From positions 2,490,001 through 2,522,000 of the forward strand of contig NZ_CP147990.1 of assembly GCF_037902255.1 (NCBI RefSeq): a stretch of DNA of 32,000 bases. Direction: 5' to 3'. Of the stretch, positions 8,257-23,923 are shown piece after piece. The notes beneath the pieces were generated by a model, which saw only the letters and a program-made list of their open reading frames with translations, did no database searches and was not told the DNA's origin. Position numbers and translations under genes: made by a program. Every line of letters begins with the position of its first letter. The stretch's first letter is position 1. This DNA is from Candidatus Electrothrix sp. GW3-4. GTDB taxonomy: Bacteria > Desulfobacterota > Desulfobulbia > Desulfobulbales > Desulfobulbaceae.

Positions 8257-9351
8257 CTACTCTGATTCCTCTGAGCCTCCTCTGGTTCCCAAGCTTCGGC
8301 TTGGGAATCCCTGTCCCTGAAGTCCTGCTTCCCAGATGAAGCGGAGCTTCACGATGATCATACCCAAGCAGAGCCTGGGCACCAGCAACCAGCATTTTTT
8401 TCGGGACCAAGCCCCTCCCTGACCGTCACTACTCCGTACGTTCCTTGTCCAGGGAGGTGGCTGCCCCTTGTCCTGCGCACTACCGTGCGGCCTGAGCTTA
8501 TGACCTGAGGCAAGGCGGAAGCCGACGTTGTCGTCGCGGCGGTCCGGCGAGTAGTGGAAACGGCAGGCGGAACGGACGTTCCTGCCGTTGCCGCCCCACG
8601 AGCCGCCCCGCATAACACGGAAGGAGCCCGATGCATGGTACGGATCAGCGACCGGCTGTTCTCCTAAGTGCTCCTCCCAGCTATCCGCACACCATTCCCA
8701 GACATTGCCGTGCATCTCGTACAGACCCCAAGGGTTCGGAGGCAGGGATTTGACCGGGACGGTCTTTTTCCGATAGGCGCCTTTTTCCCCGTTAGCATAG
8801 GGACGGTTGCCGTTATAGTTCACCTGTTCCGGCGTGATATTTGTACCAAAGGAAAACGGGGTGTCCGTGCCTGCCCGACAGGCATGTTCCCATTCCGCCT
8901 CTGTGGGTAGGCGGAAGAGCATGCCTTCTTCTGTCCCTCCGGCCTCCGCAATGCGTCGATTCAGCTCGGTAATAAACTCCTGGGCATTGTCCCAGCTCAC
9001 CTCTTCCACCGGGTTGAATTTATCGTCTTGGAACTCAACAGGATTCCTACCAATAATCGCCTGCCATGCCGCCTGGGTGACAGCAGTATCGGCCAGCCAG
9101 TAGCCTCTGGTCAGGCTGACCTTATGGAAATCTTCAGTGCTTAATCGGTCTGCCTCGTCAGCTGGTGAACCCATCATAAACTCCCCGGCGCAATCCAACG
9201 GAAACGCTGGCGCAGTTGCTTTAAATCTGGTTCCAAAACTCCGGCTTGGGAACGAGGAATCTGCAGGTCGGCATAGAGACCGTATTGATCCTCTCCCCAC
9301 TCGCAGGCCCATGCCGGGGGAAAGGCGGGAGGATGAAAGTTGCTCTGGCAT
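8257..9351 (-). CDS. DGR target 1: FGE-sulfatase (SUMF1/C-type-lectin-fold) domain protein carrying VR1; N-terminal part frameshifted and start uncertain
   Basis: FGE-sulfatase motifs: EFMMGSP...GYWLADTAVTQAAW...VSWDNAQEF...RLPTEAEWEHACRAG...NPWGLYEMHGNVWEWCAD...RVMRGGSW...GFRLA. The first ~58 codons of the ORF-track model are an out-of-frame reading of the linker. The first in-frame ATG is at 9177. The last ~80 codons read through a repeat element. Confidence 0.8.
   Translation of the reverse strand: MPEQLSSSRLSPGMGLRVGRGSIRSLCRPADSSFPSRSFGTRFKATAPAFPLDCAGEFMMGSPADEADRLSTEDFHKVSLTRGYWLADTAVTQAAWQAIIGRNPVEFQDDKFNPVEEVSWDNAQEFITELNRRIAEAGGTEEGMLFRLPTEAEWEHACRAGTDTPFSFGTNITPEQVNYNGNRPYANGEKGAYRKKTVPVKSLPPNPWGLYEMHGNVWEWCADSWEEHLGEQPVADPYHASGSFRVMRGGSWGGNGRNVRSACRFHYSPDRRDDNVGFRLASGHKLRPHGSAQDKGQPPPWTRNVRSSDGQGGAWSRKKCWLLVPRLCLGMIIVKLRFIWEAGLQGQGFPSRSLGTRGGSEESE
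8284..8390. repeat. Structured ~105-nt repeat, copy A (left island boundary, inside the target-1 3-prime tail)
   Basis: GGTTCCCAAGCTTCGGCTTGGGAATCC...GATGAAGCGGAGCTTCAC...CCCAAGCAGAGCCTGGGCACCAGC. About 85 percent similar by eye to copies at 11458-11557 and 17323-17431, in the same orientation. Confidence 0.7.
8475..8490 (-). promoter_or_regulatory. Short GC hairpin 14 nt 3-prime of VR1 (candidate DGR target-recognition structure)
   Basis: GCGCAC-TACC-GTGCGG: a 5-bp CGCAC/GTGCG stem with a 4-nt loop. Identical sequence at the same offset from VR2 (11641-11656). Absent next to the TR. Confidence 0.35.
8505..8628 (-). repeat. DGR variable region VR1
   Basis: 124 bp aligning without gaps to TR 9752-9875. 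15 mismatches, all at TR plus-strand T positions, which are A on the coding strand. Encodes GSFRVMRGGSWGGNGRNVRSACRFHYSPDRRDDNVGFRLAS. Confidence 0.9.
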
Positions 9352-9548
9352 CTAACTTCTGATCTCAGTGCTCCTCGTTCACTTCGGTACCCGACCTCCT
9401 GCTCGAGTACCCCCTGTGCAGCAGGTGCAGCAACCGTCGTATCGGCATCATTATCTCGTTGCCGCGCTGCTGGCGCATCGTGCGTCTGCTTTCGTTCAGC
9501 ACGAAATATCAGACGCTCTGTCCATTGACGAATTCCTGATTTTGCCAC
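9174..9548 (-). pseudogene. Upstream piece of target 1, separated from the FGS domain by a 1-nt frameshift
   Basis: Ends ...PPAWACEWGEDQYGLYADLQIPRSQAGVLEPDLKQLRQRFRWIAPGSL*. RFRWIAPG is the first strand of the FGE-sulfatase domain, which continues as EFMMGS in the other frame. Compared with paralog 12350-12366, one nt is missing near 9183-9190. Confidence 0.45.
9229..9253. repeat. Solo hairpin core of the repeat family (degenerate), in the target-1 linker
   Basis: GGTTCCAAAACTCCGGCTTGGGAAC, related to GGTTCCCAAGCTCCGGCTTGGGAAC. Confidence 0.5.
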
Positions 9549-9751
9549 CGAAAGACTACCTTGATTGACGGTGACCTGAAAAGTTCGGTCACCTGGAAAC
9601 GGATAAACAGTCAGGTGTTCATGGCAACAAGCATCCGCTTGGCATTACCAACGTGACTGCCACCTTGTTATTCGCTTTTAACCTGAAAAAAATCCGGAAA
9701 AAAGACAGGGCCTGATTTGGTCATGAGCGGTTGTTCCAATGCAACTCTGAG

Positions 9752-9875
9752 CTGAGGCAAGGCGGAAGCCGTTGTTGTCGTTGCGGTTGTCCGGCGAGTT
9801 GTGGTTACGGTAGGCGGAACGGACGTTCCTGCCGTTGTTGTTCCACGAGCCGCCCCGCATAACACGGTTGGAGCC
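9752..9875 (-). repeat. DGR template region (TR), non-coding
   Basis: Third copy of the 124-bp repeat. On the minus strand it carries 11 AAC codons (GSNRVMRGGSWNNNGRNVRSAYRNHNSPDNRNDNNGFRLAS). It has no FGS context around it and lies 62 nt downstream of the RT stop. Confidence 0.9.
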
Positions 9876-9898
9876 TTTGCAATCATAACCCTTTTCCT

Positions 9899-9934
9899 GG
9901 TTCCCAAGCTCCGGCTTGGGGTTCCAACGGGAAC
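9899..9934. repeat. Solo hairpin core between RT stop and TR
   Basis: GGTTCCCAAGCTCCGGCTTGGGGTTCC (CCCAAGC/GCTTGGG stem), immediately followed by GTTCC-AACG-GGAAC. Confidence 0.55.
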
Positions 9935-9937
9935 AGC

Positions 9938-10945
9938 CTATACATCCGGGGGCGGTTTATCCAATAATTGTTTCTTCCGCCATGCGGAACTGTCGGTTCC
10001 CTGTGCAACAGCATGGACGGCTGCATACGCTGTCTGTAATTGACAATCACTTAGGTTTCCTTGTTCATATTCCTGTTCCCAATACCGTCGCCTTCGGTTG
10101 ATTGTCTGTTTTCGCCGCCGACTTAATCGAACAATACCCTGCATGATCCTGAACCCGCAATAGGTCACTCCGGTTCGACAGGGAAGAATCTGCACATTGG
10201 ATTTAACTGTCAGTAAGCGTCGTTCCTGTAAATAATCAGCAACATCCCTCAGAGTGCACTTGGCATCTTTTTTTGAAGGACACCACCAAATAATATCATC
10301 CATATAACGAACAGCAGCAGTGACCTGCCGATGAGATGTCAGCAGACGATCCAGCCCGTCCAGATAGAAATTGGCAAAGTATTGAGAAGTCAGGGAGCCG
10401 ATGGGAAGTCCTTTCTCCTCCATATCAGGACAACTTTTTATAATGCGATACAGCTGATAATGAAACCGGTTCCCCTTAAAATGCCGCATAAGCAAACGAA
10501 GGAGAATCTCATGGTCTATTGCTGAAAAGTAAGCTGAAATATCAATTTTTACAAGCCACAGAAAACGCCGGAGATTTTTCTGTACCTGCTGAACAACCCT
10601 ATGCACCCCTTTGTTTTGTCGGCAGGCATAACTATGATGGACCATACTTTTTTCCAGTCGTTCTCCTGTCACGTTCATTACGGCATGATGAAAGATTCTG
10701 TCTTCAAAACAGGCTGCATGTATCAGACGTTTTTTCGGATCATGAATCTGAAAAGCCCTGAAGCGACCGTAGGGCATTTTTTCAGCAAGAATATCTCGGG
10801 CCATTCTGGAGAGCCTGCTGTCAAGTTCGCTGTAAAATTCCTGAACAATCCTGCGATGTCGCTTTCCTCTTGAAGCCTTATGCAGAGCAAGGCAAAGGTT
10901 CCTGTAATCAGCGATTTCTTCCAATGACACCTTTTGTCGTTTCAT
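9938..10945 (-). CDS. DGR-type reverse transcriptase
   Basis: 335 aa. RT motifs include IGSLTSQYFANFYL (the DGR-specific [ILV]GxxxSQ signature) and the catalytic YMDD. The size and the adjacent TR are typical of DGR RTs. Confidence 0.95.
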   Translation of the reverse strand: MKRQKVSLEEIADYRNLCLALHKASRGKRHRRIVQEFYSELDSRLSRMARDILAEKMPYGRFRAFQIHDPKKRLIHAACFEDRIFHHAVMNVTGERLEKSMVHHSYACRQNKGVHRVVQQVQKNLRRFLWLVKIDISAYFSAIDHEILLRLLMRHFKGNRFHYQLYRIIKSCPDMEEKGLPIGSLTSQYFANFYLDGLDRLLTSHRQVTAAVRYMDDIIWWCPSKKDAKCTLRDVADYLQERRLLTVKSNVQILPCRTGVTYCGFRIMQGIVRLSRRRKQTINRRRRYWEQEYEQGNLSDCQLQTAYAAVHAVAQGTDSSAWRKKQLLDKPPPDV

Positions 10946-10954
10946 CCAGTTTCA

Positions 10955-11287
10955 TCACTGTTCGAGGTGCTGTTTTTTTCGGCATTGCTCAAGGCAGGAG
11001 AGAAATTGTGCACTATATTTTTCAACCCGTGCCTGACCGATACCTTTTCCAGCAGATAACGCGGTATTTGAGCATATATTATCAGTGACCATCCATGCAA
11101 GCTGCGCATTGGTAAAGACGGCGTAGGCTGGAATACCCTCGTCCTCTGCTATCTGCTTTCTTAGATTACGGAGTTCTGCATATACTGAAAAGTCTTCAGG
11201 TGACAGTATCTCCTTGTAGTCCACCTGACTTTTCTTCCTGCCCGTTTTTGCCAGATCACCCATGGGAGCATGTTCAGCGGTTGTCAC
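10955..11287 (-). CDS. HRDC-domain DGR accessory protein
   Basis: 110 aa. SVYAELRNLRKQIAEDEGIPAYAVFTNAQLAWMV...ALSAGKGIGQARVEKYSAQFL matches the HRDC helical-bundle pattern seen in RecQ and RNase D C-termini. It sits 9 nt upstream of the RT on the same strand. Confidence 0.75.
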   Translation of the reverse strand: MTTAEHAPMGDLAKTGRKKSQVDYKEILSPEDFSVYAELRNLRKQIAEDEGIPAYAVFTNAQLAWMVTDNICSNTALSAGKGIGQARVEKYSAQFLSCLEQCRKKQHLEQ

Positions 11288-11457
11288 GCAGATCGACCAG
11301 AAACTGTTTGCACCGTCCTGAACAAAATTTTTTCTATACTCACAACCTGGTGCTGATTGACAAAACGATTCAGTTCAGTTTCGATCTCTTCCGGAAACTG
11401 TGCAGGAACAGCAAAAAATTTCAGCAAAACGGTTTCTCCCGAGAAGAAGTATCTTTT

Positions 11458-11557
11458 GGTTCCTCCGGCTTGGGAACTCTATTTCTGAAGCTCTGCTTCA
11501 CAGATGAAGCGGAGCTTCACGATGTTCGTGCCCAAGCAGAGCTTGGGGGCACCAGCG
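11458..11557. repeat. Structured repeat, copy B (first hairpin truncated), inside the target-2 3-prime tail
   Basis: GGTTCC--TCCGGCTTGGGAAC...GCTCTGCTTCACAGATGAAGCGGAGCTTCACGATGTTCGTGCCCAAGCAGAGCTTGGGGGCACCAGC. Confidence 0.7.
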
Positions 11558-12526
11558 CTTAAAAAATCGGGGCCAAACACCTCCCTGACCGTCACTACTC
11601 CGTACGTTCCTTGTCCAGGGAGGTGCCTGCCCCTTGCCCTGCGCACTACCGTGCGGCCTGAGCTTATGACCTGAGGCAAGGCGGAAGCCGTAGTCGTCGT
11701 CGCGGTAGTCCGGCGAGCGGTGGAGACGGTAGGCGGAACGGACGCTCCTGCCGTAGAGGTCCCACGAGCCGCCCCGCATAACACGGTCGGAGCCAGAGGT
11801 GTCATTGTATGGATCAGAGACAGCCTCTTCGCCTAAATTCTCCTCCCAGCTATCCGCACACCATTCCCAGACATTGCCGTGCATTTCATACAGTCCCCAA
11901 GGATTGGGCGGCAGGGATTTTACCGGGACGGTCTTTTCCCGATACTTCCCTTTTTCTCCGTCCGCATAGGGATGGTTGCCGTCATAATTCACCTGTTCAG
12001 AGGTGATATTTTTACCAAAGGAAAACGGGGTGTCTGTGCCTGCCCGGCAGGCATGTTCCCATTCCGCCTCCGTGGGCAGGCGGAAGAGCATCCCCTCTTC
12101 TGTCCCTCCCGCCTCCGCAAGGCGTCGATTCAGTTCGGCAATAAACTCCTGGGCATTGTCCCAGCTCACCTCTTCCACCGGGTTGAATTTATCGTCTTGG
12201 AACTCAGCAGGATTCCTACCAATAATCGCCTGCCATGCCGCCTGGGTGACAGCAGTATCGGCCAGCCAGTAGCCTCTGGTCAAGGTGACCTGGTGGTAAT
12301 CTTCATCGCCATCGCGTTCTTTTTCATCCGGCGGTGAACCCATCATAAACTCACCCGCCGGAATCCAACGAAAACGCTGGCGCAGGTTCTTTTCTCCGGT
12401 CCCCAAGCCGAAGCTTGGGGACCAGCGGAAGCTTGGGAACAAGGAATATGCAGGTCCGCATAGAGGCCAAAGCAATCCTGTCCTACCGCACTTGCCCACT
12501 TGGGTTTTATTAGCGCCTGCAGGCAC
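11498..12526 (-). CDS. DGR target 2: FGE-sulfatase domain module carrying VR2; probably the displaced C-terminal domain of the 677-aa ORF, start uncertain
   Basis: ...NLRQRFRWIPAGEFMMGSPPDEKERDGDEDYHQVTLTRGYWLADTAVTQAAW... Highly similar to target 1 outside the VR. There is no ATG or SD at the ORF-track GTG start. The first ATG (12346) overlaps the upstream stop as ATGA. Confidence 0.85.
   Translation of the reverse strand: MPAGANKTQVGKCGRTGLLWPLCGPAYSLFPSFRWSPSFGLGTGEKNLRQRFRWIPAGEFMMGSPPDEKERDGDEDYHQVTLTRGYWLADTAVTQAAWQAIIGRNPAEFQDDKFNPVEEVSWDNAQEFIAELNRRLAEAGGTEEGMLFRLPTEAEWEHACRAGTDTPFSFGKNITSEQVNYDGNHPYADGEKGKYREKTVPVKSLPPNPWGLYEMHGNVWEWCADSWEENLGEEAVSDPYNDTSGSDRVMRGGSWDLYGRSVRSAYRLHRSPDYRDDDYGFRLASGHKLRPHGSAQGKGQAPPWTRNVRSSDGQGGVWPRFFKRWCPQALLGHEHREAPLHL
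11641..11656 (-). promoter_or_regulatory. Short GC hairpin 14 nt 3-prime of VR2
   Basis: Same GCGCAC-TACC-GTGCGG as at 8475-8490. Confidence 0.35.
11671..11794 (-). repeat. DGR variable region VR2
   Basis: 124 bp, ungapped against the TR. 14 mismatches, all at TR adenines on the coding strand. Encodes GSDRVMRGGSWDLYGRSVRSAYRLHRSPDYRDDDYGFRLAS. Confidence 0.9.
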
Positions 12527-14376
12527 AGCTCGGTCAGATCGGTTTTGATGCTGCGAACCTCCAGCAACGAAATTTCTTCAGCATCGGTTATCGACTGCAC
12601 CTGCTCGGTCAGCGGATCAGGCAGGTCCACCGAGCAACTGCTGTCGTCGCTCAGGACCAGCTTGATCGCCGGTCGGCGATAGGAAAGAGCGGCCAGCAGA
12701 CTGGTATGCTGCTGCGGGACCTGGGTGGGCACATGGCGGGCAACGACCAACCGTCTGCCCTGCTGACAGAGCCAGACTCTCTGCTCCGGCTGCTCATTCG
12801 AAGGAAGCAACTCAGGGTCCAGGGCATGGCCGCTCCGGCTGGTGGGTTGGCCCGGATTGAGCTGGGAGAAAATGGTCTGCAGCTCCCTATACGCCACACC
12901 CCGTTGCACAGCAGGCCCGCACATCCGACTCTCCAGACGGATGGCCCAGGCCTGACAGGCAGGGTCGGCCAGTTTTCCCTGGGCAGACAGCTGCGTAAGA
13001 AAGGCACAACCCGTCTGGATATCCTGCTCCATTACCTTCCGTTCCTGCCCCTGAAAAACCGCCTCCTTGTCCAGCAGGGCCTCGACATTGAGCAGCTCCT
13101 CAAACCAGATCTCCTCCGCCAGGGGCTGCCGCCAATACCTGAGCTGCTGTAGGGCGAAGCGCTGCTCTTCCGGCGGCAAGGTCGCGAATTTTTGCAACCG
13201 CTCTTTACGGGCCTGGCTATGGAAGGTGGCTGCCACATTATGCGGTTCCCGGATATCCGGGTGCTGCCAGCACAGGGCCTCGATTACTGCGGGCGGCTGC
13301 GCCCCGAAACGGTGCATCCCCAGACGGAGGCAACGCAGGAGCTGGGGTTCCAGGCGCAGAGCCGGGGCAGCCAGGGTAAGCAGCTGTTCTGTCCAGTCGT
13401 TCTGCCTGTCCGGGCCTTCTTCTATATCTGCGGGGAAGGGCCGGGCCTGTGCATCCCAGCTGAGACAGCGGATCTGTCGCCGGACAAGGGCGGGATAGTC
13501 GGCAGGCGCACAGGGCGTCAGCAGGGTGATTGGATTGCCGTTGCGCAACAGGCACTGCACCAGCTGCTGATACTGCTGCTGGCGCCGGTTGAAGCTGCGG
13601 GGCTCCCTACCGGCCTGCTGCGACAGCCGCCCCAGATCGCTGAGCAGCAGGACCGGGGTCCCGGTGGGCGGCAGGCGAAAGGGCTGGAGGACAAAATCCC
13701 TGCTGATCTGCCGGGGTTCTGTGTCGCCGTTGGTGATCACGGCCCTACTGATCTGTCCCGACCCAAAGGTGTCGTACAGGTGCAGGGTGAGCCAGGTATG
13801 ATCCGACCAGAACGGGGTGAGATGGACCTGGCGGTCATCAATGATCTGCAGGGCGTCCAGGCTCTGCTGCTGCGCCGTGACAGGCAGTCTGCCGGGAAAT
13901 TCCGCCCGGCTGAGCTTGTCAATGAGAACCGGCAGATCAATGGAGCGCCCCCCCTGGCAGTCCAGGGCCAGCCAGGGAAAGAGGCGGGTACGCAGGTCTT
14001 CCAGGCTGGTCAGGGCCGGATATACCGGTGGTACCTCGGGACGGTTCTGCCAGGCGACCGGGCGGGTACTGATGACCGTCTCTTTCCTTTTTTCTTGCTC
14101 CTGTTTTCGACGCTCTGCAGCATCCTTGAGCGATGCATAACGGACAAGCTGGAGATAGCGGGCCGTGAGTTGGGCGGTGGGGCTGCGGTTCAGAACAGGA
14201 GTAAAACTTACTGGCTGGCCGGTGACTGTAATTGAGGCTGATTGAATAGCAAACCGGGTTGTTTCTCCGGCTTCATAGCGCAGGCCTAATTCTCGGCCAA
14301 TCCTGTTGCCAAGCTGCTGATCTCCTTCAGCCAGGGCCACGAGCAGGTCGGCCCGGCTGAGCTGGCCTGGTTTCAT
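12343..14376 (-). CDS. 677-aa protein of unknown function; its C-terminus carries the pre-FGS linker motif
   Basis: Long ORF whose ATG overlaps the AAA+ stop as ATGA. I recognise no catalytic motif. It ends ...KPKWASAVGQDCFGLYADLHI, then reads out of frame through a hairpin-repeat insertion into the FGS module. Confidence 0.8.
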   Translation of the reverse strand: MKPGQLSRADLLVALAEGDQQLGNRIGRELGLRYEAGETTRFAIQSASITVTGQPVSFTPVLNRSPTAQLTARYLQLVRYASLKDAAERRKQEQEKRKETVISTRPVAWQNRPEVPPVYPALTSLEDLRTRLFPWLALDCQGGRSIDLPVLIDKLSRAEFPGRLPVTAQQQSLDALQIIDDRQVHLTPFWSDHTWLTLHLYDTFGSGQISRAVITNGDTEPRQISRDFVLQPFRLPPTGTPVLLLSDLGRLSQQAGREPRSFNRRQQQYQQLVQCLLRNGNPITLLTPCAPADYPALVRRQIRCLSWDAQARPFPADIEEGPDRQNDWTEQLLTLAAPALRLEPQLLRCLRLGMHRFGAQPPAVIEALCWQHPDIREPHNVAATFHSQARKERLQKFATLPPEEQRFALQQLRYWRQPLAEEIWFEELLNVEALLDKEAVFQGQERKVMEQDIQTGCAFLTQLSAQGKLADPACQAWAIRLESRMCGPAVQRGVAYRELQTIFSQLNPGQPTSRSGHALDPELLPSNEQPEQRVWLCQQGRRLVVARHVPTQVPQQHTSLLAALSYRRPAIKLVLSDDSSCSVDLPDPLTEQVQSITDAEEISLLEVRSIKTDLTELCLQALIKPKWASAVGQDCFGLYADLHIPCSQASAGPQASAWGPEKRTCASVFVGFRRVSL
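12398..12440. repeat. Hairpin-repeat insertion (one full and one half core) in the 677-aa/FGS linker
   Basis: GGTCCCCAAGCCGAAGCTTGGGGACC (8-bp stem CCCCAAGC/GCTTGGGG) followed by AGCGGAAGCTTGGGAAC. Confidence 0.6.
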
Positions 14377-15449
14377 GGTGCCTCAGCCAGGCTGTCCCGG
14401 GGAAAATCGGGATGCTTTTTCGAGGTGAAGCGGGACAGGGTAGTGAGCAGCTCGACAAACTCCTCTGGGCTCCGTTCCTTCTTCAGCTTATCCATGCCCC
14501 GCAGCAGGTCAAAATACTCGGCCTGACCGGGCAGGGGGTGGAGATTTTTCTCCTGGGCAAGGGCCCTGTCATTCAGGATCATTTCAGCGGCAGCCTGCAA
14601 CACATTTTTATCACGCTCCATTTTGTCGTTTTCCAATTCGGGAAAATTCGGCGCGCCGTGCTTAACCAGATAGGCCACCTGCTCCGCACGATTTTCCGGC
14701 AGGCCCAGGGTCACGGAGAGACAACGGCGGATAAAGGCATCCGGCAGGATCCGTTCCTCATTGGTGGTGATGATGATGAGGGGAGGGATGCCCTCGGCCT
14801 CCACCGGCCTGTCCATCCCTTCGGGATGGAAGCGGTTTGCCCCCAGGACCTCCAGCAGGCCGTTGGGCACGCTGCTGTCGGCCTTGTCGATTTCATCGAT
14901 CAGGACAACGGCTCCGTTGCTTTCCGCCTTGTCCGCATTGAGATAATGGGCCATGGGATTTTCAGAAAGACCGCAGGGATCTTCCGCCTTTTCACCGACA
15001 CCGGCTTGCTGCCGACAGGACTGAATTTTTGCATACTGTTTCCCAGCCGATTGCCAGTTCAGGGCCTGCCAAAGCGGGCCGGGAGAGAGATAGTTGGCCT
15101 TGGCAAGGCGCTCCCTTGCCCGGCAGCGTTCGTTTTCATCCTTACATAAGGCCCCCTCTATCTGGGCATCCGCCAGCCGGGCCACGGCATCAAAGGAACA
15201 GAGCAGGTCCTTGGCCTCGGTGGAATGGTTGACCGTGAAAGGGATATAGGTGCGTTTGAGGGCCGCAGCGGCTGCCTTGGCCAGCTGGCTCTTGCCAGCA
15301 CCGGGTTCGCCCCGGATCAGCAGGGGCCGGTTGATGGCCAGGGCCGCGTTGACGGCATCAATGGCGTCCTGCTCAAAGACGTAGATGTGTTCTTCACCGT
15401 GGTCGTTGGTGATGGTCGGACGGGCACCTTTGAGTATCTTATTCTTCAT
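14373..15449 (-). CDS. MoxR-like AAA+ ATPase (AAA_5 type)
   Basis: 358 aa. Walker A LLIRGEPGAGKSQLA, Walker B AVVLIDEIDKAD, then NGLLEVL...PLIIITTNEERILPDAFIRRC (sensor and arginine region), as in the MoxR/CbbQ/NorQ class. Confidence 0.88.
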   Translation of the reverse strand: MKNKILKGARPTITNDHGEEHIYVFEQDAIDAVNAALAINRPLLIRGEPGAGKSQLAKAAAAALKRTYIPFTVNHSTEAKDLLCSFDAVARLADAQIEGALCKDENERCRARERLAKANYLSPGPLWQALNWQSAGKQYAKIQSCRQQAGVGEKAEDPCGLSENPMAHYLNADKAESNGAVVLIDEIDKADSSVPNGLLEVLGANRFHPEGMDRPVEAEGIPPLIIITTNEERILPDAFIRRCLSVTLGLPENRAEQVAYLVKHGAPNFPELENDKMERDKNVLQAAAEMILNDRALAQEKNLHPLPGQAEYFDLLRGMDKLKKERSPEEFVELLTTLSRFTSKKHPDFPRDSLAEAP

Positions 15450-16923
15450 CGTGTTTTCTTTCAGCTATAAGGGCGGGCAGATTAATAAGCAAAGGGAGTT
15501 CCGCTTTTTCAAGGTCGGGATTTCCCGCGGCCAAATTCAAGATGATCAAGTTGGGATATTCCTCTGCATACTTGGCGAGTTTCTTCAGTTCTTCACTTCC
15601 GAAACGGACAATGAGATAAAAACTGTTTCCCTCTTTTCGTGCTTGGCTCAACCGCCCGTTAACCAGGTTTTTTGGATTAAATCCCGGCTGATCCTTTGCA
15701 AAGCGCTCTGCCAGTAGGTTATCCAGGGCTGACGTGGAAAGAATATTTTTATTTAGGACATCAAAGACATGTATGCCGTCTTTATCAATACCGTTTTCAG
15801 GCGGTGAGGAGAGGGCAAAACGCCCCCGCATAACAAAGGCTCTGTAGTCCTGTTTCGTTTTCCCAGCAGGACGGGAGGCAGTAACATAGGCCTTGCGGCA
15901 ATCAAAAGCAGCCATACTGCATTCCGCAGCAACGTCGCAGATACAGTCGATATCAATTGCCCCCTCTGCTGACCGATCGATCACCACTGATTGGTTGATA
16001 AAATACCACGGCAATAGGGCCAGAGCCAAGGTCCGTCTGTCTTCCTGATTCGTGTCCAGCTGTTCAATATACTCTAAAAAATCTGGGAGACTCTGCTGCA
16101 CCAGCTCACGGACAACCTGTCCCGGCTCTGCTGAACCGCCCAACGCCTTTTTCAGGTTTGCTTTCTCATTGAGCATCTGGTCAGCAAGTTTGAGAATTTT
16201 TTCCGATTTTGTGCTGTAGCTAGTATCAAATTTCTGGAGGATACGCCTGAATTCTTCGTCTCCATCCCATAGGCGTTTGAGGTAAACAGCTGTCAGACGA
16301 TTCGGAATAACCTCTTTTTTCCTTTCCGAATCATACTCAAAATATCTGCGAAGAATTCCGGCAAGTTTTCCTTGGATAAAAATCGGACTCCCGGATGCTT
16401 CACGCCAGTCTCTCATGCAGGGCAACGTAGTAGTAACATTCAGCTGAAGATGTTTACCCCCAGCGGCAGGGGCTTCAAAAGTCCCGGAGAAGAGTTCCAA
16501 TCCATCTGTATCTTGAGTTTCTCTGTTATAATATGGATAACCGCCGCCTTTCCAGTCTCCGGGTTCTTCAAGTTCATTGAGGAGCAATAGGTCAATGTTA
16601 GCTGCGGCCTGTTCACAGTGCAGCAACACTATATCATACTCTTCAGATGCAAAGAGAATACCCTCTTCATCCAACAGACCTTGCAGAGTTGTTGCCTGAA
16701 AAGTAATCTCATAGTCGGTATCTTTGGCCCCCTGTGACCTGATGTGCACAAGTATAGGGCGCTGATTATCGTATGCGCCATCAGCAGCGGCAAAACCGTG
16801 ACGGCAGGTGATAAGAATCCCATTACCGAGGATATAACCGGAAAAATACCTGTGCGCCTTCACACCCTTGCTTATGGTGGGTAGAGCAAGACGAACTATC
16901 CGATTTTGGATTTCCTCTCTCAA
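15439..16923 (-). CDS. Trypsin-like serine protease (N-terminal ~215 aa) fused to an unrecognised ~280-aa C-terminal domain
   Basis: Catalytic-triad contexts: ILITCRHGF (His), EYDIVLLH (Asp), EASGSPIF (Ser), in the order and spacing of the chymotrypsin fold. TTG start overlaps the upstream stop (TTGA), with GGAG 7 nt upstream. Confidence 0.8.
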   Translation of the reverse strand: MREEIQNRIVRLALPTISKGVKAHRYFSGYILGNGILITCRHGFAAADGAYDNQRPILVHIRSQGAKDTDYEITFQATTLQGLLDEEGILFASEEYDIVLLHCEQAAANIDLLLLNELEEPGDWKGGGYPYYNRETQDTDGLELFSGTFEAPAAGGKHLQLNVTTTLPCMRDWREASGSPIFIQGKLAGILRRYFEYDSERKKEVIPNRLTAVYLKRLWDGDEEFRRILQKFDTSYSTKSEKILKLADQMLNEKANLKKALGGSAEPGQVVRELVQQSLPDFLEYIEQLDTNQEDRRTLALALLPWYFINQSVVIDRSAEGAIDIDCICDVAAECSMAAFDCRKAYVTASRPAGKTKQDYRAFVMRGRFALSSPPENGIDKDGIHVFDVLNKNILSTSALDNLLAERFAKDQPGFNPKNLVNGRLSQARKEGNSFYLIVRFGSEELKKLAKYAEEYPNLIILNLAAGNPDLEKAELPLLINLPALIAERKHDEE

Positions 16924-17285
16924 CGATCATCTCCAGCGAGATTCACATTAGAATCATCGGCATTTTTGGCCGCTAAACTCAGTTTAATCTTCTGTTCAGA
17001 GACCTTTTGATATTCCCCTTCCGCACTGAGATCAATTTGTGCGCCCACCTTTCCCACCAGATATTTGACCAGGCCCTCGCTGAGGTCTACCTTGCCAACG
17101 GCCTTGCCGCCCCCTTTGACCTTCTTGGCAATGGTCAGGTTGAGCTCCAGCTCAATATCCTTCACACCAAAGCGAATCTGCTTCCCTTCTCCCTGCGCTT
17201 GCGCCTTTTCCAGCTCACTCCTCAAGCCCTCAATCACCTCTGCCAACTCAACAACTGTTGCTGCCTGGGTGTCTTTCTCGCCCAT
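16920..17285 (-). CDS. Trypco2-like (trypsin-co-occurring domain 2) small protein
   Basis: 121 aa. LAEVIEGLRSELEKAQAQGEGKQIRFGVKDIELELNLTI...GGGKA...QKIKLSL matches my memory of the trypco2 pattern: a helix, then R-F-x-V-x-x-hELEh, a Gly-rich loop, then h-K-h-x-L. It sits directly upstream of a trypsin-like protease. AGGAGGG RBS. Confidence 0.65.
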   Translation of the reverse strand: MGEKDTQAATVVELAEVIEGLRSELEKAQAQGEGKQIRFGVKDIELELNLTIAKKVKGGGKAVGKVDLSEGLVKYLVGKVGAQIDLSAEGEYQKVSEQKIKLSLAAKNADDSNVNLAGDDR

Positions 17286-17322
17286 GATATCCCTCCTGAG
17301 TAAATTTTTTCCTGATGTTCCT

Positions 17323-17431
17323 GGTTCCCAAGCTCCGACTTGGGAATCCCTGCTCTGGAAGCTCTGCTTCCCATATGAAGCGGAGCTTCATGGTGTTCGT
17401 CCCCAAGCAGAGCCAGGGAACCAGCGGAACC
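17323..17431. repeat. Structured repeat, copy C (right island boundary, between cbiD stop and trypco2 start)
   Basis: H1: GGTTCCCAAG-CTCCGA-CTTGGGAATC. Outer stem GCTCTGCTT (17361-17369) / AAGCAGAGC (17405-17413), enclosing ATGAAGC-GGA-GCTTCAT (17375-17391). Confidence 0.7.
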
Positions 17432-17452: not shown

Positions 17453-18544
17453 TCAAACCTGCTCAATCACGCCGTCCTCCGAGGTCACAAGATAAACGCT
17501 GACCGGGAGGCCGGAGCATTCCTTTGCATATTGCCGGGCCTTACGACAGACGGCCCGCACCAGATCGTCCCTGTTCTTTTCCTGTAGGCGCTGCAAGATC
17601 TCCCGGGCCGTATTGGCCTGCCTCATCCGGGCAACGCTGTCCCGATCCAGCCCCAGCTCCCCCAGGAGATCGGCGGCCTGCTCCATCTCCAGGGCCCCAT
17701 TGCGGACATGGGTCTGGGGTATGCAGAGGGCGCCCTTGAGGACCTTGGCCCACATGCCCGCCAGATGTATTTCACGGAAGCCATGCCGACCAGCCGCTTT
17801 CAAGGCATATTCCAGATAATCCCCCATCATTACTTGGGCCTCTTCCGGGAGTTGAAGGAGCTTCTGCACGGCGGCCTCTGAGGTCCGCCCTGTGGAAAGG
17901 ATGACCTGGTCCAGCCCGGCGGCCCGAGCCACCTGCATGGAGGCATCAATGGTGTCGGTCCAGGCCTTGGCCGAGACCGGTCGGACAATGCCGGTGGTGC
18001 CCAGGATGGACAGACCACCGATGATGCCCAGGCGCCGATTCAGGGTCTTTTCTGCCAGCTCTTCCCCATCACGGACAGAGATGGTCACCAGCAAGGATAC
18101 CGGCTTCGGCAGGGAGTCCGTCACTTCAGTTATTGCTTCGGCCACGGCCTCCCGGATCATCTGGCGGGGCACCGGGTTAATAGCCGGTTCCCCCACCGCA
18201 ATGGAGAGGCCGGGCTTGGTCACGGTCCCTACGCCAGTACCGGCCCGGATCGTCACCGTCTCATCGCCCTCACCTGCTGCTTCCTTACTGACTTTGCGGA
18301 CAACGGCAATAATCTCGGCCCCGTTGGTCACGTCCGGGTCATCACCGGCATCCTTGATGACAGAGGCGCTTGCCGTATTATCTTCCAGGGTACAGATATG
18401 GAGTGAAAAACAACGACGCTCTCCATCCGGGAAAGGGATATCCACCTGTTGTGGGTAGGATTCACCAAGTAGCATAAGGGTAGCAGCCTTAGCCGCAGCA
18501 GCAGCGCAGGCGCCAGTGGTATAGCCGGATCGGAGTTCAGCCAT
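17453..18544 (-). CDS. cbiD: Cobalt-precorrin-5B (C1)-methyltransferase CbiD
   Basis: [21 protein letters not shown]...[14 protein letters not shown]...[24 protein letters not shown] are typical CbiD motifs. I chose ATG 18544. The ORF-track extension to 18709 overlaps the upstream macro-domain gene and looks non-coding. Confidence 0.88.
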
Positions 18545-19058
18545 TTTCTCCGTCGTACCTGGAAAGGGCCTGAGTGAATGCCGAGATTGCGGCCTGATTG
18601 AAACAGCAGATAGAGACGGTTGCAATCTTTCCGGGATGGGCATGAAGAAAGGTCGCGATCTCTCGCACGGCGATGTCCGCAGCCTGCGGCAGGGGATACC
18701 CATAAACACCGCAGCTTATGGCTGGGAAGGCTATTGTGCGCAGGTTATGCTTCAAGGCAAGTGCCAGAGAGGTGCGGTAGCAACTGGCAAGCAATTCAGG
18801 TTCTTGCTGCTTGCCGCCGCGCCAGATAGGCCCGACGGTATGAATGACATGGCGGGCAGGCAGGTTATGACCTCCTGTGATCCTTGCCGCGCCAGTATGG
18901 CAGCCGTTGAGCTGCCTGCACTCTGCAAGCAGTCCTGGTCCAGCGGCACGGTGAATCGCCCCATCAACGCCACCGCCTCCGAGCAACGAGCGGTTTGCGG
19001 CATTGACGATCGCGTCAGCCTGGAGGGTTGTTATGTCTGCCTTGATTACTTCAAGCAT
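18537..19058 (-). CDS. Macro-domain protein (O-acetyl-ADP-ribose deacetylase-like)
   Basis: 173 aa. [26 protein letters not shown]...VIHTVGPIW...[14 protein letters not shown] is the canonical macro-domain signature. Confidence 0.9.
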
Positions 19059-19152: not shown

Positions 19153-21972
19153 TTAGCCCATTGAATTCTTCTTAAGAAGTTCAGCGACCTCCTCCGGTGG
19201 CAACGGCTTGCTAAAATAATACCCCTGCACCTCTTCACACCCCATCTCCCTGAGCAGCTCCAGCTGACCCTTAGTCTCAACCCCTTCGGCAACGACCTTG
19301 AGATTCAGACTCTCTGCCATGGACAGAATAGAGGCAACAATAGCCTCATCATTACGGTCACGAACAATATCAGCAATAAACGCCTGATCAATCTTCAGGG
19401 TATTGACCGGAAAATTTTTCAGATAAGCAAGCGAAGAGTAGCCAGTGCCGAAATCATCAATAGCTATCCGCACCCCCAGCGCCCTAATATCTGAGAGTAA
19501 TTGCGCGGCCTCTTCTGGATTCTCCATAAGGACGCTCTCCGTAATCTCCAGCTCTAAGGCCTCCGGCCTAATGCCGTTCTCATGAAGGGTTTCAATAAGG
19601 AGAGCGAGCAGCTGCTTATCCTGAAATTGCCTTGAGGAGAGATTGGCCGCCAAAGACAACCCCACTATCCCCTGCTCCTGCCAGACCGTGACCTGTTGAC
19701 ATGCCTCCCTCAGCCCCCATTCCCCGATGGCCAGGATAAGACTGCTTTCCTCGGCAACAGGAATGAATTCAGCCGGAGAAATAATCCCCTTTGTCGGATG
19801 GCGCCAGCGCATGAGCGCCTCTACCCCGCAAATTTTTCCTCTTGCAAGGTCATATTTGGGTTGATAGTACAGGATAAATTCTTCATGCTCCAGGGCATGC
19901 CGTAATTCTCTTTCTACCGTCACCCGATGGAGCAGATTTTCATTCATCTGGGCACGAAAATACTGGTAACTTCCCTGCCCCCGCTTTTGGGCAAAACTTA
20001 TCGCTATATCTGCATTTTTGATCAGGCTTTCCGCATCCTGACCATCCTCTGGATACACAGTAATACCGATACAGGCATCAATAAAGATCTCCTCACCTGC
20101 AATATGAAAAGGCTGCTGAAGAACATGCAGTACATGGCGCGCCAGATGGCCAACACAATCCTTGAGCTTCACTTTGGAAAGAAGGACCATGAATTCATCA
20201 CCACAGAGCCTTGATACGGTATCAGTTTCCCGGACACAACTGCGAATTCTCTTGGAAACCTGGACCAGCAAATCATCACCAGCCTTATAGCCAAGGGTAT
20301 CATTGATATCCTTAAATCGATTCAGATCAATACAAAGAAGAACCAGAGGTTCACCATAAAACTGGCTGTTGAGCAGGGCTTGGGCGAGAAGCTCCTCAAA
20401 AAGAGTCCGGTTGGGAAGGTTTGTCAAGGGATCGTACAACAGCAGCTTTTTCAGCTGCTTTTCCACCTTTCTTTTCTCGGTAATATCGGTAAAAAGACCA
20501 ACATAATTTATCGTCTCGCCGCTCATGTCGTAGACTGCATTAATCGTAAGATATTTTTGATACACCTCTCCGCTCTTGCGCCGATCCCATATCTCTCCTG
20601 ACCATTTTCCGCTCTCCTTTAATTCCTTCCACATCGTCTCATAAAAGGCCTGATCATGATACCCTGACTTGCAGATCCGTGGGTTCTCACCGACGACCTC
20701 CCTCGGTTCATACCCTGTAATCCAGGTGTAGGCCTTATTGATATCCACAATCGAGGCATCAGCGTCTGTGATAACAATGGCCTCTCCGGTGTTTTCCAAG
20801 ATCTTCTGATCGAGTTGGAGCTGATATTCTAACTCCTTTTGATCAGTAATATCAGTGCGGATATACCCGAGCCCACATTTTTTCTGCCCGCAATCGCTGA
20901 GAGGAAAGCAAGACGTTTTCAGCACCCTTTTTTCATTATCTATCCAGAAGGTTTCCTCATATTCTCCTGCCTGCTGGAACACCTCAGAAGCTTTCTCGTC
21001 CTTTTGTTGCACTGGCAGGAGCCCCTCTTCTGACCTGCCGATGATATCTTTGTGTTCGAGCCCGAAATACTTTTTAAAACGTTCGTTAACCAGGGTGAAT
21101 CGTCCTGATACGTCTTTCAAGGCAATGAGGGAGGGTGAATGTTCAAGAACATCGACAAACTTTTTTTTGGTTGTCTCAAGCTCCTCAGCCTTTTTCCAGA
21201 GTTTTTTCACCTCATCCCGGCAGGTGCTCAGTAAAAAAAAACTACACAGCAGATAGGCGCAAAAAGGCAGCAGGTGCCAGAGCCTCCACAGCAGATCCCA
21301 GCGGGGAGGAAAGAACGAAAGGAAAGAGGTCAGGGAAAAAAGGAAGCTCGCGCTTGCAAGCAGTCGGTTTTGCCCTGGAATGCCTTGTCCTTGCTCATTA
21401 CCAAGAAAAAAACACCAGGCAACGAGAAAACAGATACCGCCAAAGGCTGCCAATGGCTGGGCGATCCTGTGCAGTTCGTTACTCCCCCCCTGTGCAGAGA
21501 CGGTATTTAAAAAAAACAAAAGGAATATACCGACAGTAAGAGAGGAGATACCCACCAGCCAAGGAAAGGTCCTCAGCACTCCTGGGGACAACTGCCTTGT
21601 CGGCAGGCTCACTAGGGCCAACAAGATAAGACCTCCGACGAACAGAGCCAACGCATGCAGGCCAGAAGCGAGCAAACCTGCGTATCCTGCCTGCAGGCCA
21701 TCAAGTACCCCCATCCCCAGCAGGGCCGAGGCAAGCAGCATCAAACCTTGATCACGATGTTTTTCATGCTGGATCAGCATCCAGAAGAGGGCAGAAAAAA
21801 GGGCGACACAGGCTCCGCCAACAAGGAAGAGAACATGCAGAGATTCAGGAAACCAGTACCCGTTTTCCTGGGCAGGCAGGACCAAGGCAATAAAGAGGAG
21901 AAGGAGCAAGATGACGGGACCTTCTGCTGCTCGAACAATCCATGTTCGCAGCCTATCAGCTTGCCCTGTCAT
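19153..21972 (-). CDS. Membrane-anchored PAS/PAS-GGDEF-EAL signalling protein
   Basis: 939 aa. About 8 N-terminal TM helices and two PAS-like segments, then a GGDEF domain with a degenerate CGDEF motif. The EAL domain has EALMRW, DDFGTGYSS and a KIDQAF-type motif. Confidence 0.9.
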   Translation of the reverse strand: MTGQADRLRTWIVRAAEGPVILLLLLFIALVLPAQENGYWFPESLHVLFLVGGACVALFSALFWMLIQHEKHRDQGLMLLASALLGMGVLDGLQAGYAGLLASGLHALALFVGGLILLALVSLPTRQLSPGVLRTFPWLVGISSLTVGIFLLFFLNTVSAQGGSNELHRIAQPLAAFGGICFLVAWCFFLGNEQGQGIPGQNRLLASASFLFSLTSFLSFFPPRWDLLWRLWHLLPFCAYLLCSFFLLSTCRDEVKKLWKKAEELETTKKKFVDVLEHSPSLIALKDVSGRFTLVNERFKKYFGLEHKDIIGRSEEGLLPVQQKDEKASEVFQQAGEYEETFWIDNEKRVLKTSCFPLSDCGQKKCGLGYIRTDITDQKELEYQLQLDQKILENTGEAIVITDADASIVDINKAYTWITGYEPREVVGENPRICKSGYHDQAFYETMWKELKESGKWSGEIWDRRKSGEVYQKYLTINAVYDMSGETINYVGLFTDITEKRKVEKQLKKLLLYDPLTNLPNRTLFEELLAQALLNSQFYGEPLVLLCIDLNRFKDINDTLGYKAGDDLLVQVSKRIRSCVRETDTVSRLCGDEFMVLLSKVKLKDCVGHLARHVLHVLQQPFHIAGEEIFIDACIGITVYPEDGQDAESLIKNADIAISFAQKRGQGSYQYFRAQMNENLLHRVTVERELRHALEHEEFILYYQPKYDLARGKICGVEALMRWRHPTKGIISPAEFIPVAEESSLILAIGEWGLREACQQVTVWQEQGIVGLSLAANLSSRQFQDKQLLALLIETLHENGIRPEALELEITESVLMENPEEAAQLLSDIRALGVRIAIDDFGTGYSSLAYLKNFPVNTLKIDQAFIADIVRDRNDEAIVASILSMAESLNLKVVAEGVETKGQLELLREMGCEEVQGYYFSKPLPPEEVAELLKKNSMG

Positions 21973-21979
21973 TCGCTGC

Positions 21980-23923
21980 TCATCCCGTGTTTTTGCGCAG
22001 AATACGCTTATCTCCGACCCGAATGGTCAGCTTGATCTTATCAAAGTACTCCAATAAGGGGATGGAAAACTTGCGGGTCAGTCCCGTGAGGTCTTTAAAA
22101 GCCGGGGCGTCAATCTCCCCTTCTTTGTCCAGATAGTCTTGCACGCTTTCTGCCAGCCGATGAAGTTCTTCGGCATAAAAGAATAAGGCCTCATTAATTT
22201 TGATCAAGGTGCCGTTCTGCAGGAGCAGATCAATGACCTGACGGATTTGCTTTTCGGGAAATTCCGCAAAGGTGGCCAAGACGTCCTTCAAATTCGGCGG
22301 ACGCAGGCCAGCCTCCTGGTACAGCTTGCCGATTTTTTCCTGCATTTCCTGTTCATCAACCTGCAGGGTTACCTCATGGCTCCTCAAACGCACCTCTGCC
22401 CCTTCCTGGACAATGAGAGCGTTTTTGGCAAGGCTGGTCATCAGGTACTGAAACAGCTTCTGGTCCACCGGAGGCCGGAGACGGGAGCGTATTTCCTCTC
22501 TTGCCAGACCGCTCTTAAGGGGATTTTCCTTATGATACTGCTCTAACAAAGTGAGCACGGCTTGATTGAGCCGCTCAATCACCTGGCCAGCAACCAGACG
22601 TTGATTTTCCGATTCCACCACCAGGACCTTTTTTGCAGAGATAGGGACCTGGAGCTGTTTTTTCAGTTTTTTACCAAACAGACCCAGGCGGGTGGAAAGT
22701 TGGTCCGCTGTAATCCCCTGTATTCCACTCTCTTCAAGAAAGAGGAGCATTTTTGCAATAATGCTCTCTCCCTCATTTTCTGCTTTATAAATGGAAAAGA
22801 TAACACGATTACGTGCCCTGTTCTGCTCAGTGGAACGTTTCCGCTTCGGCGGCGCATTGTTGAGAATCACCCCGCCGCCCAAGGTGGCAACCGGTGAATA
22901 GCTGCGCAGGACAAAACGGTCGCCTGGCCAAACCGCCACAGGATCCTGGACAATGAGCTGGATATCGGCATCTTCACCTGGCTCCACCGTGTCCTTTTCC
23001 ATCAGGACCACCCGGGCCAGGATTTCCCGGGTACCCACATGTAAACGTACCTGGGTCCTGTTCTTCAATTTTCTCGAATTATTGGCCAGGAAATGAAAAT
23101 CCGCATCCAGCAGGGTTGAGGCCTGCATAGTGCCTGGGGTGGCAGCGAGATCGCCCCGGTTGATCTCCTCCTTTTCAATGCCTTGCAGGTTGATCGCTGT
23201 ACGATGTCCAGCCTCAACAATCTCCTGTTCTTGGCCATGCACCTGGATGCCCCGGATCTTGGCAATCAGCCCACCCGGATAAAACATCAGGTCTTCCCCC
23301 ACGGCAACCCGCCCGGAAAGAGAAGAACCAGTGATCACGGTCCCAAAGCCCTTCATGGAGAACACCCGGTCGACTGCTAAACGAAATGGCCCGAATTCCT
23401 CCTGAAATTTGATTGTACCTACCTTTTCATCCAGCACCTTTTTCACCGCCTCAATCCCCTCACCAGTAGTGGAGGACACGGCCAAAATCGGAGCCTCTTC
23501 CAGGAAACTGCCTGTAAAAAAATCCCTGACCTCTTCCTCGACCATCTCCAGCCATTCTTCCTCCACCATGTCCTTCTTGGTCAGGATGATCAGGCCGTCT
23601 TTGACACCCAGCAATTTGCAGATATCAAAATGTTCCCTGGTTTGGGGCATGATACCCTCATCCGCCGCCACGATAAAGGCCACCATGTCCATACCTGCGG
23701 CGCCAGCCACCATATTGCGAACAAACTTCTCATGGCCCGGCACATCAACAATACCCAGACGATGCCCGCAATCGAGGTCGATATAGGCAAAGCCCAATTC
23801 AATGGTGATGCCCCGCTTTTTTTCTTCCTGTAACCGGTCGGTTTCAATACCGGTCAGGGCGCGGATCAAACTTGTCTTACCATGGTCAACATGACCGGCG
23901 GTACCGAGGATTATTTCACGCAT
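21980..23923 (-). CDS. selB: Selenocysteine-specific translation elongation factor SelB
   Basis: 647 aa. The GTPase N-terminus [19 protein letters not shown]...DVPGHEKF...TKKD is followed by a long C-terminal winged-helix extension of the length typical for bacterial SelB. Confidence 0.93.

Follow-up and report, generated by a model that had tools for sequence, protein, structure and literature searches.

The locus considered here raises two questions: what a diversity-generating retroelement (DGR) is doing beside genes for a protease, an ATPase and a small Trypco2 protein, and whether the assembly is still intact in the genome that carries it. It occupies the minus strand of a 32,000-nucleotide stretch of the filamentous cable bacterium Candidatus Electrothrix sp. 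GW3-4 (contig NZ_CP147990.1, positions 2,490,001 to 2,522,000; hereafter the window, in whose numbering all positions are given). We consider it probable that the locus is a DGR-coupled, MoxR-ATPase-linked protease/Pepco conflict cassette of the abortive-infection type, working through the chain of events proposed below and switched off in this genome. A conflict-system locus is present here, of a kind already predicted computationally in other multicellular bacteria, and its purpose is probably suicidal and directed against invaders.

Four open reading frames (ORFs) form a minus-strand chain through their overlaps, in the order Trypco2, a 494-aa protein, an AAA+ ATPase and a 677-aa protein, as seen from the ORF list and a reading of the junctions; coordinates and overlaps are exactly those of an earlier account made from the DNA letters alone, hereafter the sequence-only reading. 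The Trypco2 ORF (16920-17285), with an AGGAGG-like ribosome-binding site ahead of its ATG, shares the 4 nt TTGA (16923-16920) with the 494-aa ORF (15439-16923), which overlaps the AAA+ ORF (14373-15449) by 11 nt, ATGAAGAATAA; this in turn overlaps the 677-aa ORF (12343-14376) by ATGA. The domain identities proposed in the sequence-only reading are correct, Pfam recognising Trypco2, AAA_5/bpMoxR and FGE-sulfatase, and a conserved triad together with Foldseek revealing the trypsin fold. Correct, too, is its tie between the operon and a DGR-diversified FGE module of C-type-lectin (CLec) fold, as the second variable repeat (VR2) lies inside that module.

The DGR is real, and it has introduced adenine-directed mutations into the C-terminal lectin-fold pocket of both the long sensor and a short target that consists of the FGE part only. 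Within a 124-nt core of the template repeat (TR) that contains 29 adenines, every mismatch falls on a TR adenine, 15 of 15 for VR1 and 14 of 14 for VR2 (29 of 29 in total), and the two variable repeats differ from each other in sequence. The reverse transcriptase (RT) is 75% identical over its full length to the orthologue in Candidatus Electrothrix laxa (Ca. E. laxa).

The 677-aa ORF, annotated as a hypothetical protein, is best understood together with the FGE ORF that follows it. A word-seeded search among 5.8 billion proteins returned a tiny family of 12 homologues of its ~640-aa N-terminal extension (N-extension), nine of them full-length and the others fragments, and each of the nine (880-1157 aa) ends in an FGE-sulfatase domain. 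When one such homologue (P0001) is aligned by tblastn, residues 1-641 match frame -3 as far as 12442, whereupon frame -2 takes over from 12391 for residues 646-882. Because full-length homologues fuse both parts and the frame changes from -3 to -2, the two ORFs are two frames of one sensor gene, split in this genome. The observation that the 677-aa ORF runs into the FGE module carrying VR2 therefore holds, as two frames of a single gene, whereas the idea of a separate 677-aa partner of the ATPase has to be abandoned: the protein is the N-terminal two thirds of a sensor that is FGE-fused in nine full-length relatives. Its recognition as a truncated sensor is new here, and the broken gene shows that the annotation as a hypothetical protein should not be accepted uncritically.

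At the break, the codons from the conserved (G)LYADL to QRFRW span 71 nt in the sensor and 54 nt in the paralogous short target. The 17 extra nt, a net shift of -1, include a perfect palindrome, CCCCAAGC-TTCG-GCTTGGGG (12402-12425), and none of the intact homologues examined at this junction changes frame there. Since the net shift is -1 and the palindrome would form a perfect 8-bp hairpin with a UUCG loop, a programmed -1 ribosomal frameshift was entertained. It was rejected for lack of support: the 0 frame of the overlap has no X XXY YYZ slippery heptamer, the hairpin lies upstream rather than downstream of the sole A-rich run, and the intact homologues are in frame.

In an AlphaFold2 (AF2) model (pLDDT 70, pTM 0.67) the N-extension comprises a disordered N-terminus, an α/β domain (~176-310) with the invariant motifs IIDDRQ.HL.P[YF]W and (LL)SDLG, a helical region (~320-510) and a β-rich region (~530-620). 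Searches of Pfam, NCBIfam and PADLOC at thresholds as loose as E<=10 returned no family for it, and Foldseek of the model against the Protein Data Bank (PDB) gave no match at E<=1e-3. The top weak structural matches were vWA domains (CMG2, ANTXR1, VWF-A1, CLCA1 and the NorQD complex; E 0.06-1), and a profile search of PDB sequences pointed weakly to the AAA+ domain of DnaA (E 0.12). None of the nine N-extensions matched a vWA family of Pfam at E<=10, and the DxSxS motif of the metal-ion-dependent adhesion site (MIDAS) is absent; a cryptic, MIDAS-less vWA domain is possible but unproven. That the α/β domain arose by degeneration from the AAA+ ATPase of the same system was also considered and found no support (hhalign probability 0.5%). 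By-eye reading of the sensor sequence detected no signal peptide or transmembrane segment.

The 494-aa protein matched no family of Pfam, NCBIfam or PADLOC even at E<=10, falling below every Pfam threshold, and a profile search against PDB sequences returned nothing significant; for this reason the intact His/Asp/Ser triad claimed for it was at first unproven. Its relatives and its predicted structure bear the claim out. H42, D97 and S177-G178-x-P180 are invariant among 12 close relatives. An exhaustive profile search yielded a family of 403 representatives at E<=1e-3, most of them 470-530 aa long and aligned end to end, and in 65 members with a mean identity of 12% the only invariant columns are H42, D97, S177 and G178; 46 of these 65 match Pfam Trypsin_2. 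The AF2 model of residues 1-230 is confident (pLDDT mostly 70-90), and Foldseek places it with DegQ/DegP/HtrA and V8/Esp/Spl proteases (E 2e-8; 342 PDB chains at E<=1e-3). With its His-Asp-Ser order and GxSGxP-like serine motif, the protein is a trypsin-like protease of the chymotrypsin fold (PA clan). Its C-terminal domain (~235-494, ~260 aa) is conserved across the family, poorly modelled by AF2 and matched by no known family; VMAP gave no Pfam match there at E<=10 and is not among the families listed for the 65 relatives. A phage-borne origin of the cassette, which was also considered, finds no support, as viral contigs yielded no protein related to the protease.

The ATPase is of the AAA_5/midasin type: its bpMoxR score of 28.6 bits lies just above the Pfam gathering cutoff of 27, and its top PDB sequence matches are midasin AAA domains. 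Walker A (GEPGAGKS; G47, G50, G52, K53, S54) and Walker B (LIDEID; D185, E186) are invariant in 10 orthologues, so that the intact motifs described in the sequence-only reading are confirmed.

The likely role of the first gene comes from recent work on its family. Pepco, which is the same as Trypco1/2, is a stable, pre-assembled 9-10-mer β-barrel, from which a trypsin-like protease removes a C-terminal tail of ~2 kDa after a conserved Ile (I97 of 117 aa) to give a lethal pore (Evans et al. 2025, bioRxiv; PMC12642450). The window protein is an exact match to WYD82533, annotated as a trypco2 family protein. Its N-terminus is an amphipathic helix, and the 21 aa beyond I100 (in QKIKLSL) form a polar tail; in an alignment of seven orthologues the I100 column holds I or V within a conserved QK[IV]KL motif, and the tail is variable. 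I100 of 121 aa thus resembles I97 of 117 aa in the characterised Pepco when the two are compared by position. The gene directly adjoins that of the serine protease, as in Pepco-protease modules. Because Evans et al. found Pepco to be a pore toxin unlocked by protease cleavage, Trypco2 is more likely the effector, a predicted protease-activated pore former by analogy, and the protease its activator. The sequence-only reading of an NTPase-coupled conflict system is therefore reasonable as a whole and needs revision in two parts, the protease with Trypco2 as joint effector and the 677-aa protein as partner. Its statement that no such architecture had been characterised experimentally is out of date for the effector half.

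Co-conservation had been set beforehand as a test of these ideas, and at least 10 further contigs repeat the Trypco2-protease-AAA+-sensor block with its gene order unchanged, their proteins being 24-78% identical to those of the window (L001, which is Ca. E. laxa, and L002, L004, L005, L006, L007/8, L010, L012, L016 and L017). Where the contig allows, the HRDC gene, the RT and the short FGE target come after the four-gene block in these relatives. The cassette neighbours CbiD in the window, a PDDEXK_2 gene and TelA in Ca. E. laxa, and an ATP-synthase operon in L011; with different neighbouring genes in three genomes, it appears island-like. Contig L003 holds a distantly related AAA+/sensor pair (11387-14948) with a different upstream gene and neither Trypco2 nor protease; a Roc-COR-TIR protein and a TIR protein adjoin it on the opposite strand, a possible alternative effector arm. 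In Ca. E. laxa, right after the cassette (L001 15988-20844), stands a second set of AAA+ (441 aa, with a long insert), long FGE (863 aa) and short FGE (283 aa) genes, which has no Trypco2, protease or second RT and may be served in trans by the same DGR. As both of these occur without the protease pair, the sensing and killing halves are separable modules.

Table 1. Features of the cassette, in window coordinates.
Feature	Position	Strand	Basis or remark
DGR-coupled MoxR-ATPase-linked protease/Pepco cassette (probable)	~8257-17425	minus-strand genes	~9 kb, Candidatus Electrothrix sp. GW3-4
Palindromic element, copy A, ~105 nt	17321-17425	-	immediately upstream of Trypco2
Trypco2 / Pepco-family small protein, 121 aa	16920-17285	-	Pfam Trypco2 3.7e-16
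Serine protease, 494 aa, TTG start	15439-16923	-	trypsin fold ~1-230 and C-terminal domain ~235-494
MoxR-like AAA+ ATPase, 358 aa, AAA_5/midasin type	14373-15449	-	Pfam AAA_5 1e-11
Sensor, N-extension, ~640 aa	12442-14376	-	ORF as called 12343-14376, 677 aa with frame-shifted tail
Sensor, frame-break	12391-12442	-	tblastn frame change and DNA alignment with paralogue
Sensor, FGE-sulfatase / C-type-lectin-fold module carrying VR2	11498-12391	- (frame -2)	Pfam FGE-sulfatase 1.3e-47
VR2, in sensor FGE module	11667-11794	-	88% identical to TR
HRDC-domain DGR accessory gene, frame-disrupted	10955-11427	-	Pfam HRDC 1e-13; tblastn with 4 orthologues
DGR reverse transcriptase, 335 aa, intact	9938-10945	-	Pfam RVT_1 1.8e-17; IGSLTSQ and YMDD motifs
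Template repeat (TR), rich in AAC codons	9748-9875	-	repeat comparison with VRs
Short CLec-only second DGR target with VR1, frame-disrupted	8257-9548	-	Pfam FGE-sulfatase 2.8e-46
VR1, in short target	8501-8628	-	88% identical to TR
Palindromic element, copy C	8282-8386	-	cassette 3' end, directly after last DGR target
Palindromic element, partial copies	11487-11547 (3' of VR2), 9894-9920, 12402-12425		palindrome search

Whether this copy is functional is a separate matter. Trypco2, the protease, the ATPase and the RT remain full-length with invariant catalytic residues. Three genes, the sensor, the short target and the HRDC gene, are disrupted, in each case by a net shift of -1 and all within the 4-kb DGR/sensor half. 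Apart from the sensor break described above, the N-terminal 33 aa of the HRDC gene lie in frame -3 (11427-11329) and the remainder in frame -2; a homopolymer at ~11327-11332 reads A6 here and A7 in Ca. E. laxa, splitting the gene, and the difference may be genuine, a mutation by slippage, or else an artefact of long-read assembly. In the short target, orthologue translations aligned by tblastn put the N-terminal part (PPAFPPAWACEWGEDQYGLYADL...QRFRWIAPG) in frame -1 and the FGE domain in frame -3, with one T missing near 9185 (GGG-GAG for GGGTGAG). Both DGR targets also end in C-terminal read-through tails of ~45 aa that are absent from homologues. Measured against orthologues, frame changes thus affect the accessory gene of the DGR and both of its targets. 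No disruption was noticed in the housekeeping ORFs examined in the window, where no specific frameshift search was made.

Near-identical fragments from another assembly are frame-shifted, with ends that diverge from the window and apparently single-base length differences; sequencing error is therefore a possible source of both single-base lesions, but it cannot account for the 17-nt segment in the sensor. With the sensor split and the HRDC gene and short target each one base short, the system as sequenced is most likely off or decaying, and in this genome it is probably inactivated.

Systems of this general design have been described. Computational analysis of conflict systems defined MoxR-vWA-VMAP ternary systems, Trypco-trypsin pairs and FGS domains diversified by DGRs (Kaur, Burroughs, Iyer and Aravind 2020, eLife; PMC7159879), and the DGR loci of RT clade 5A were subsequently interpreted as a variant of these MoxR-type ternary systems (Doré et al. 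2024, PNAS; PMC10907252). In the latter loci a MoxR-like ATPase gene lies upstream of a long target with an uncharacterised N-extension, vWA and VMAP are lacking, a second, short CLec-only target is present, and Trypco1/2 and a trypsin-like peptidase are often found; the FGE domain was argued to be an antigen sensor (PMC10907252). The gene order of the window, which the sequence-only reading had thought perhaps undescribed, is therefore already on record. The closest counterparts are these clade 5A loci together with DGR 8 and DGR 9 of Thiohalocapsa PB-PSB1, where the ATPase gene likewise stands immediately upstream of the long target, an N-extension without predicted domain replaces vWA, a short CLec-only second target is present, and adjoining genes encode Trypco1/2 and a trypsin-like peptidase without canonical VMAP; there too the proposal was that a multicellular bacterium uses a hypermutated protein as the antigen sensor of a conflict system. 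The locus fits Doré's descriptive definition of MoxR-associated clade 5A loci, by gene order and domains. It differs in its host, a cable bacterium of the Desulfobulbaceae instead of a purple sulfur bacterium or cyanobacterium, in its HRDC accessory gene, and in the frame disruption of its sensor, short target and accessory gene.

Comparison with better-known systems helps to place the individual parts. The VMAP-ternary systems of Kaur et al. share the order Trypco, trypsin protein, MoxR and a protein with a DGR-diversified FGS domain, which is always C-terminal, and are DGR-linked; their vWA (in the FGS protein) and VMAP (in the protease) are both undetectable here at the sequence level. SsPepco-SsAvs4 resembles the window in that the gene directly preceding that of the trypsin-like serine protease encodes a small Trypco/Pepco protein, in which a polar tail comes after a conserved hydrophobic residue ~20 positions before the C-terminus. 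There, however, the protease is fused to a STAND (Avs4) sensor, whereas here the sensor is separate and DGR-diversified and a MoxR-like AAA+ ATPase is placed between sensor and protease; proteases of Pepco modules have been reported with FGE sensors too (PMC12642450). Canonical DGRs (Mtd of Bordetella phage BPP-1, TvpA of Treponema denticola) likewise combine an RT and TR/VR repeats with adenine-specific mutagenesis of a C-terminal C-type-lectin/FGE pocket, although their targets are a tail fibre or surface lipoprotein rather than an intracellular multi-domain signalling protein in an ATPase/protease operon, and their accessory protein is Avd rather than an HRDC protein. MoxR-vWA chaperone pairs (RavA-ViaA, NorQ-NorD, CbbQ-CbbO) also couple an AAA_5/MoxR ATPase to a partner encoded immediately downstream, and NorQD is among the weak fold matches of the N-extension; the partner here has no recognisable vWA or MIDAS, and the context is conflict, not metalloenzyme maturation.

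From the component identities, the DGR signature, the gene linkage and the conservation of the block, all of which are direct observations, we infer the following order of events. The variable lectin pocket would bind a ligand derived from an invader, and the signal would pass through the ~640-aa N-extension to the MoxR-like ATPase. Its ATP-driven remodelling may then release or activate the protease, the C-terminal domain of which would stand in for VMAP as the docking or regulatory part. The protease would clip the ~21-residue polar tail of Trypco2 after the conserved I100, and the pre-assembled β-barrel would become a membrane pore; the infected cell would die, and the clonal filament would be protected. 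Several points weigh against this scheme. No experiment has addressed any member with the MoxR/N-extension architecture, and PADLOC has no model that matches Trypco2, the protease or the sensor. The direction of the signal, with FGE as sensor rather than as the neutralising effector of Kaur et al., is deduced; cleavage at I100 is an analogy with the characterised Pepco; and the coupling of sensor to protease by the ATPase is a guess, since neither the N-extension nor the protease C-terminal domain has an assignable fold or family. The AF2 model has low pLDDT at protease residues 366-480. Finally, errors of long-read assembly could explain two of the three frame disruptions, each of which involves a single base.

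The direction of the signal is where an arrangement after Kaur et al. departs from our scheme. The protease protein would there be sensor or switch, MoxR the activator, Trypco2 an adaptor only, and the FGE protein a neutralising binder that coats or sequesters the invader. In its favour, Kaur et al. put this model forward for those VMAP-ternary systems that carry FGS domains (PMC7159879), and their genes stand in the same order as here (Trypco, trypsin protein, MoxR, FGS protein). We nonetheless think it unlikely for this locus: Pepco/Trypco proteins have been shown to be toxic pore formers unlocked by a protease and so provide a clear effector (PMC12642450), a hypervariable pocket fits recognition better than execution, as argued for the clade 5A loci (PMC10907252), and vWA and VMAP are undetectable in the window proteins. 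A different use altogether, as a device of the filament for self/non-self recognition or developmental cell death or signalling (for example kin discrimination, removal of damaged cells) in which the DGR varies recognition of a self-ligand at the cell surface or inside the cell, seems to us quite unlikely. It would suit the enrichment of such systems in multicellular bacteria (PMC7159879, PMC10907252), the filamentous form of the cable-bacterium host, the absence of any adjoining phage or mobile-element gene and the result that no relative turned up on viral contigs. However, the sole Pepco-protease module examined by experiment responds to phage portal proteins (PMC12642450), the sensor has no signal peptide or transmembrane segment detected by eye, and the island-like, variable placement of the cassette is typical of defence genes.

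Decay of the locus has a stronger claim, and we regard as possible, though at less than an even chance, that this strain holds a non-functional remnant in which the sensor, short target and HRDC genes are pseudogenes and the other genes have yet to acquire lesions. The clustering of all three frame disruptions in the 4-kb DGR/sensor half argues for it, as do the read-through tails of both targets and the housekeeping ORFs, in which none was noticed (again with no specific frameshift search). Yet Trypco2, the protease, the ATPase and the RT are full-length with invariant catalytic residues, the 640-aa N-extension and the FGE domains contain no in-frame stops, and the single-base lesions may be sequencing errors. 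A decayed remnant had been named in the sequence-only reading as grounds for giving up its proposal, and the outcome is divided, with frame breaks in three genes and four others intact. This explanation concerns the present copy and not the identity of the cassette; it is compatible with, and partly contained in, that of a conflict cassette switched off in this genome.

A further feature of the locus is a palindromic element. Copies A and C of this ~105-nt element are 85% identical over 105 nt and bracket the ~9-kb cassette as direct repeats, and the RNA is predicted to fold as one long hairpin (-61.4 kcal/mol, z = -6.8). Its terminal unit, CCCAAGC-N3-4-GCTTGGG, occurs four times in the window against 0 expected, always within the DGR part, including between the RT stop and TR and at the frame-break of the sensor. 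The same element lies upstream of the cassette in Ca. E. laxa (L001 5492-5599). It may be a repeat like a repetitive extragenic palindrome (REP) or miniature inverted-repeat transposable element (MITE), a recombination site or an RNA element. All three disruptions are net -1 and fall in the DGR/sensor half, one of them in the A6/A7 homopolymer of the HRDC gene and one made by a copy of the palindromic unit that also brackets the cassette; instead of random decay they might represent a reversible OFF state, phase-variable or palindrome-mediated, with the N-extension and the protease C-terminal domain forming a vWA-less, VMAP-less MoxR coupling module; we consider this combination very unlikely. 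If it were true, an autoimmunity-prone, hypermutating sensor and its mutator would be silenced while the ATPase-protease-pore arm is kept.

Elsewhere in the window, Rfam and tRNA scans of its whole length were empty, and scans for consensus promoters and terminators gave nothing informative. The flanks encode a macro-domain O-acetyl-ADP-ribose deacetylase (18537-19058), a PAS-GGDEF-EAL protein (19153-21972) and a globin-coupled diguanylate cyclase (5400-6413), all of them ordinary genes of the chromosome that show no evident link with the cassette. A SelD-like ORF of the AIR-synthase family, with SelB nearby (4456-5349 and 21980-23923), looks N-terminally truncated in the ORF list, possibly through an in-frame TGA for selenocysteine; neither tRNA-Sec nor any other tRNA was found in the window.

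In conclusion, the locus adds cable bacteria, a multicellular lineage that conducts electricity, to the hosts of MoxR-linked protease/Pepco conflict systems with DGR diversification; a full-text literature search found no paper that names Electrothrix together with DGRs. New here are the host lineage and the delimitation of two conserved modules, the ~640-aa N-extension and the ~260-aa C-terminal domain of the protease, which presumably carry the coupling logic. Compact and strongly co-conserved, the unit of four genes gives each step of the chain, from sensor through ATPase and protease to pore, a protein of its own, so that the Pepco mechanism becomes testable downstream of a hypermutable sensor.

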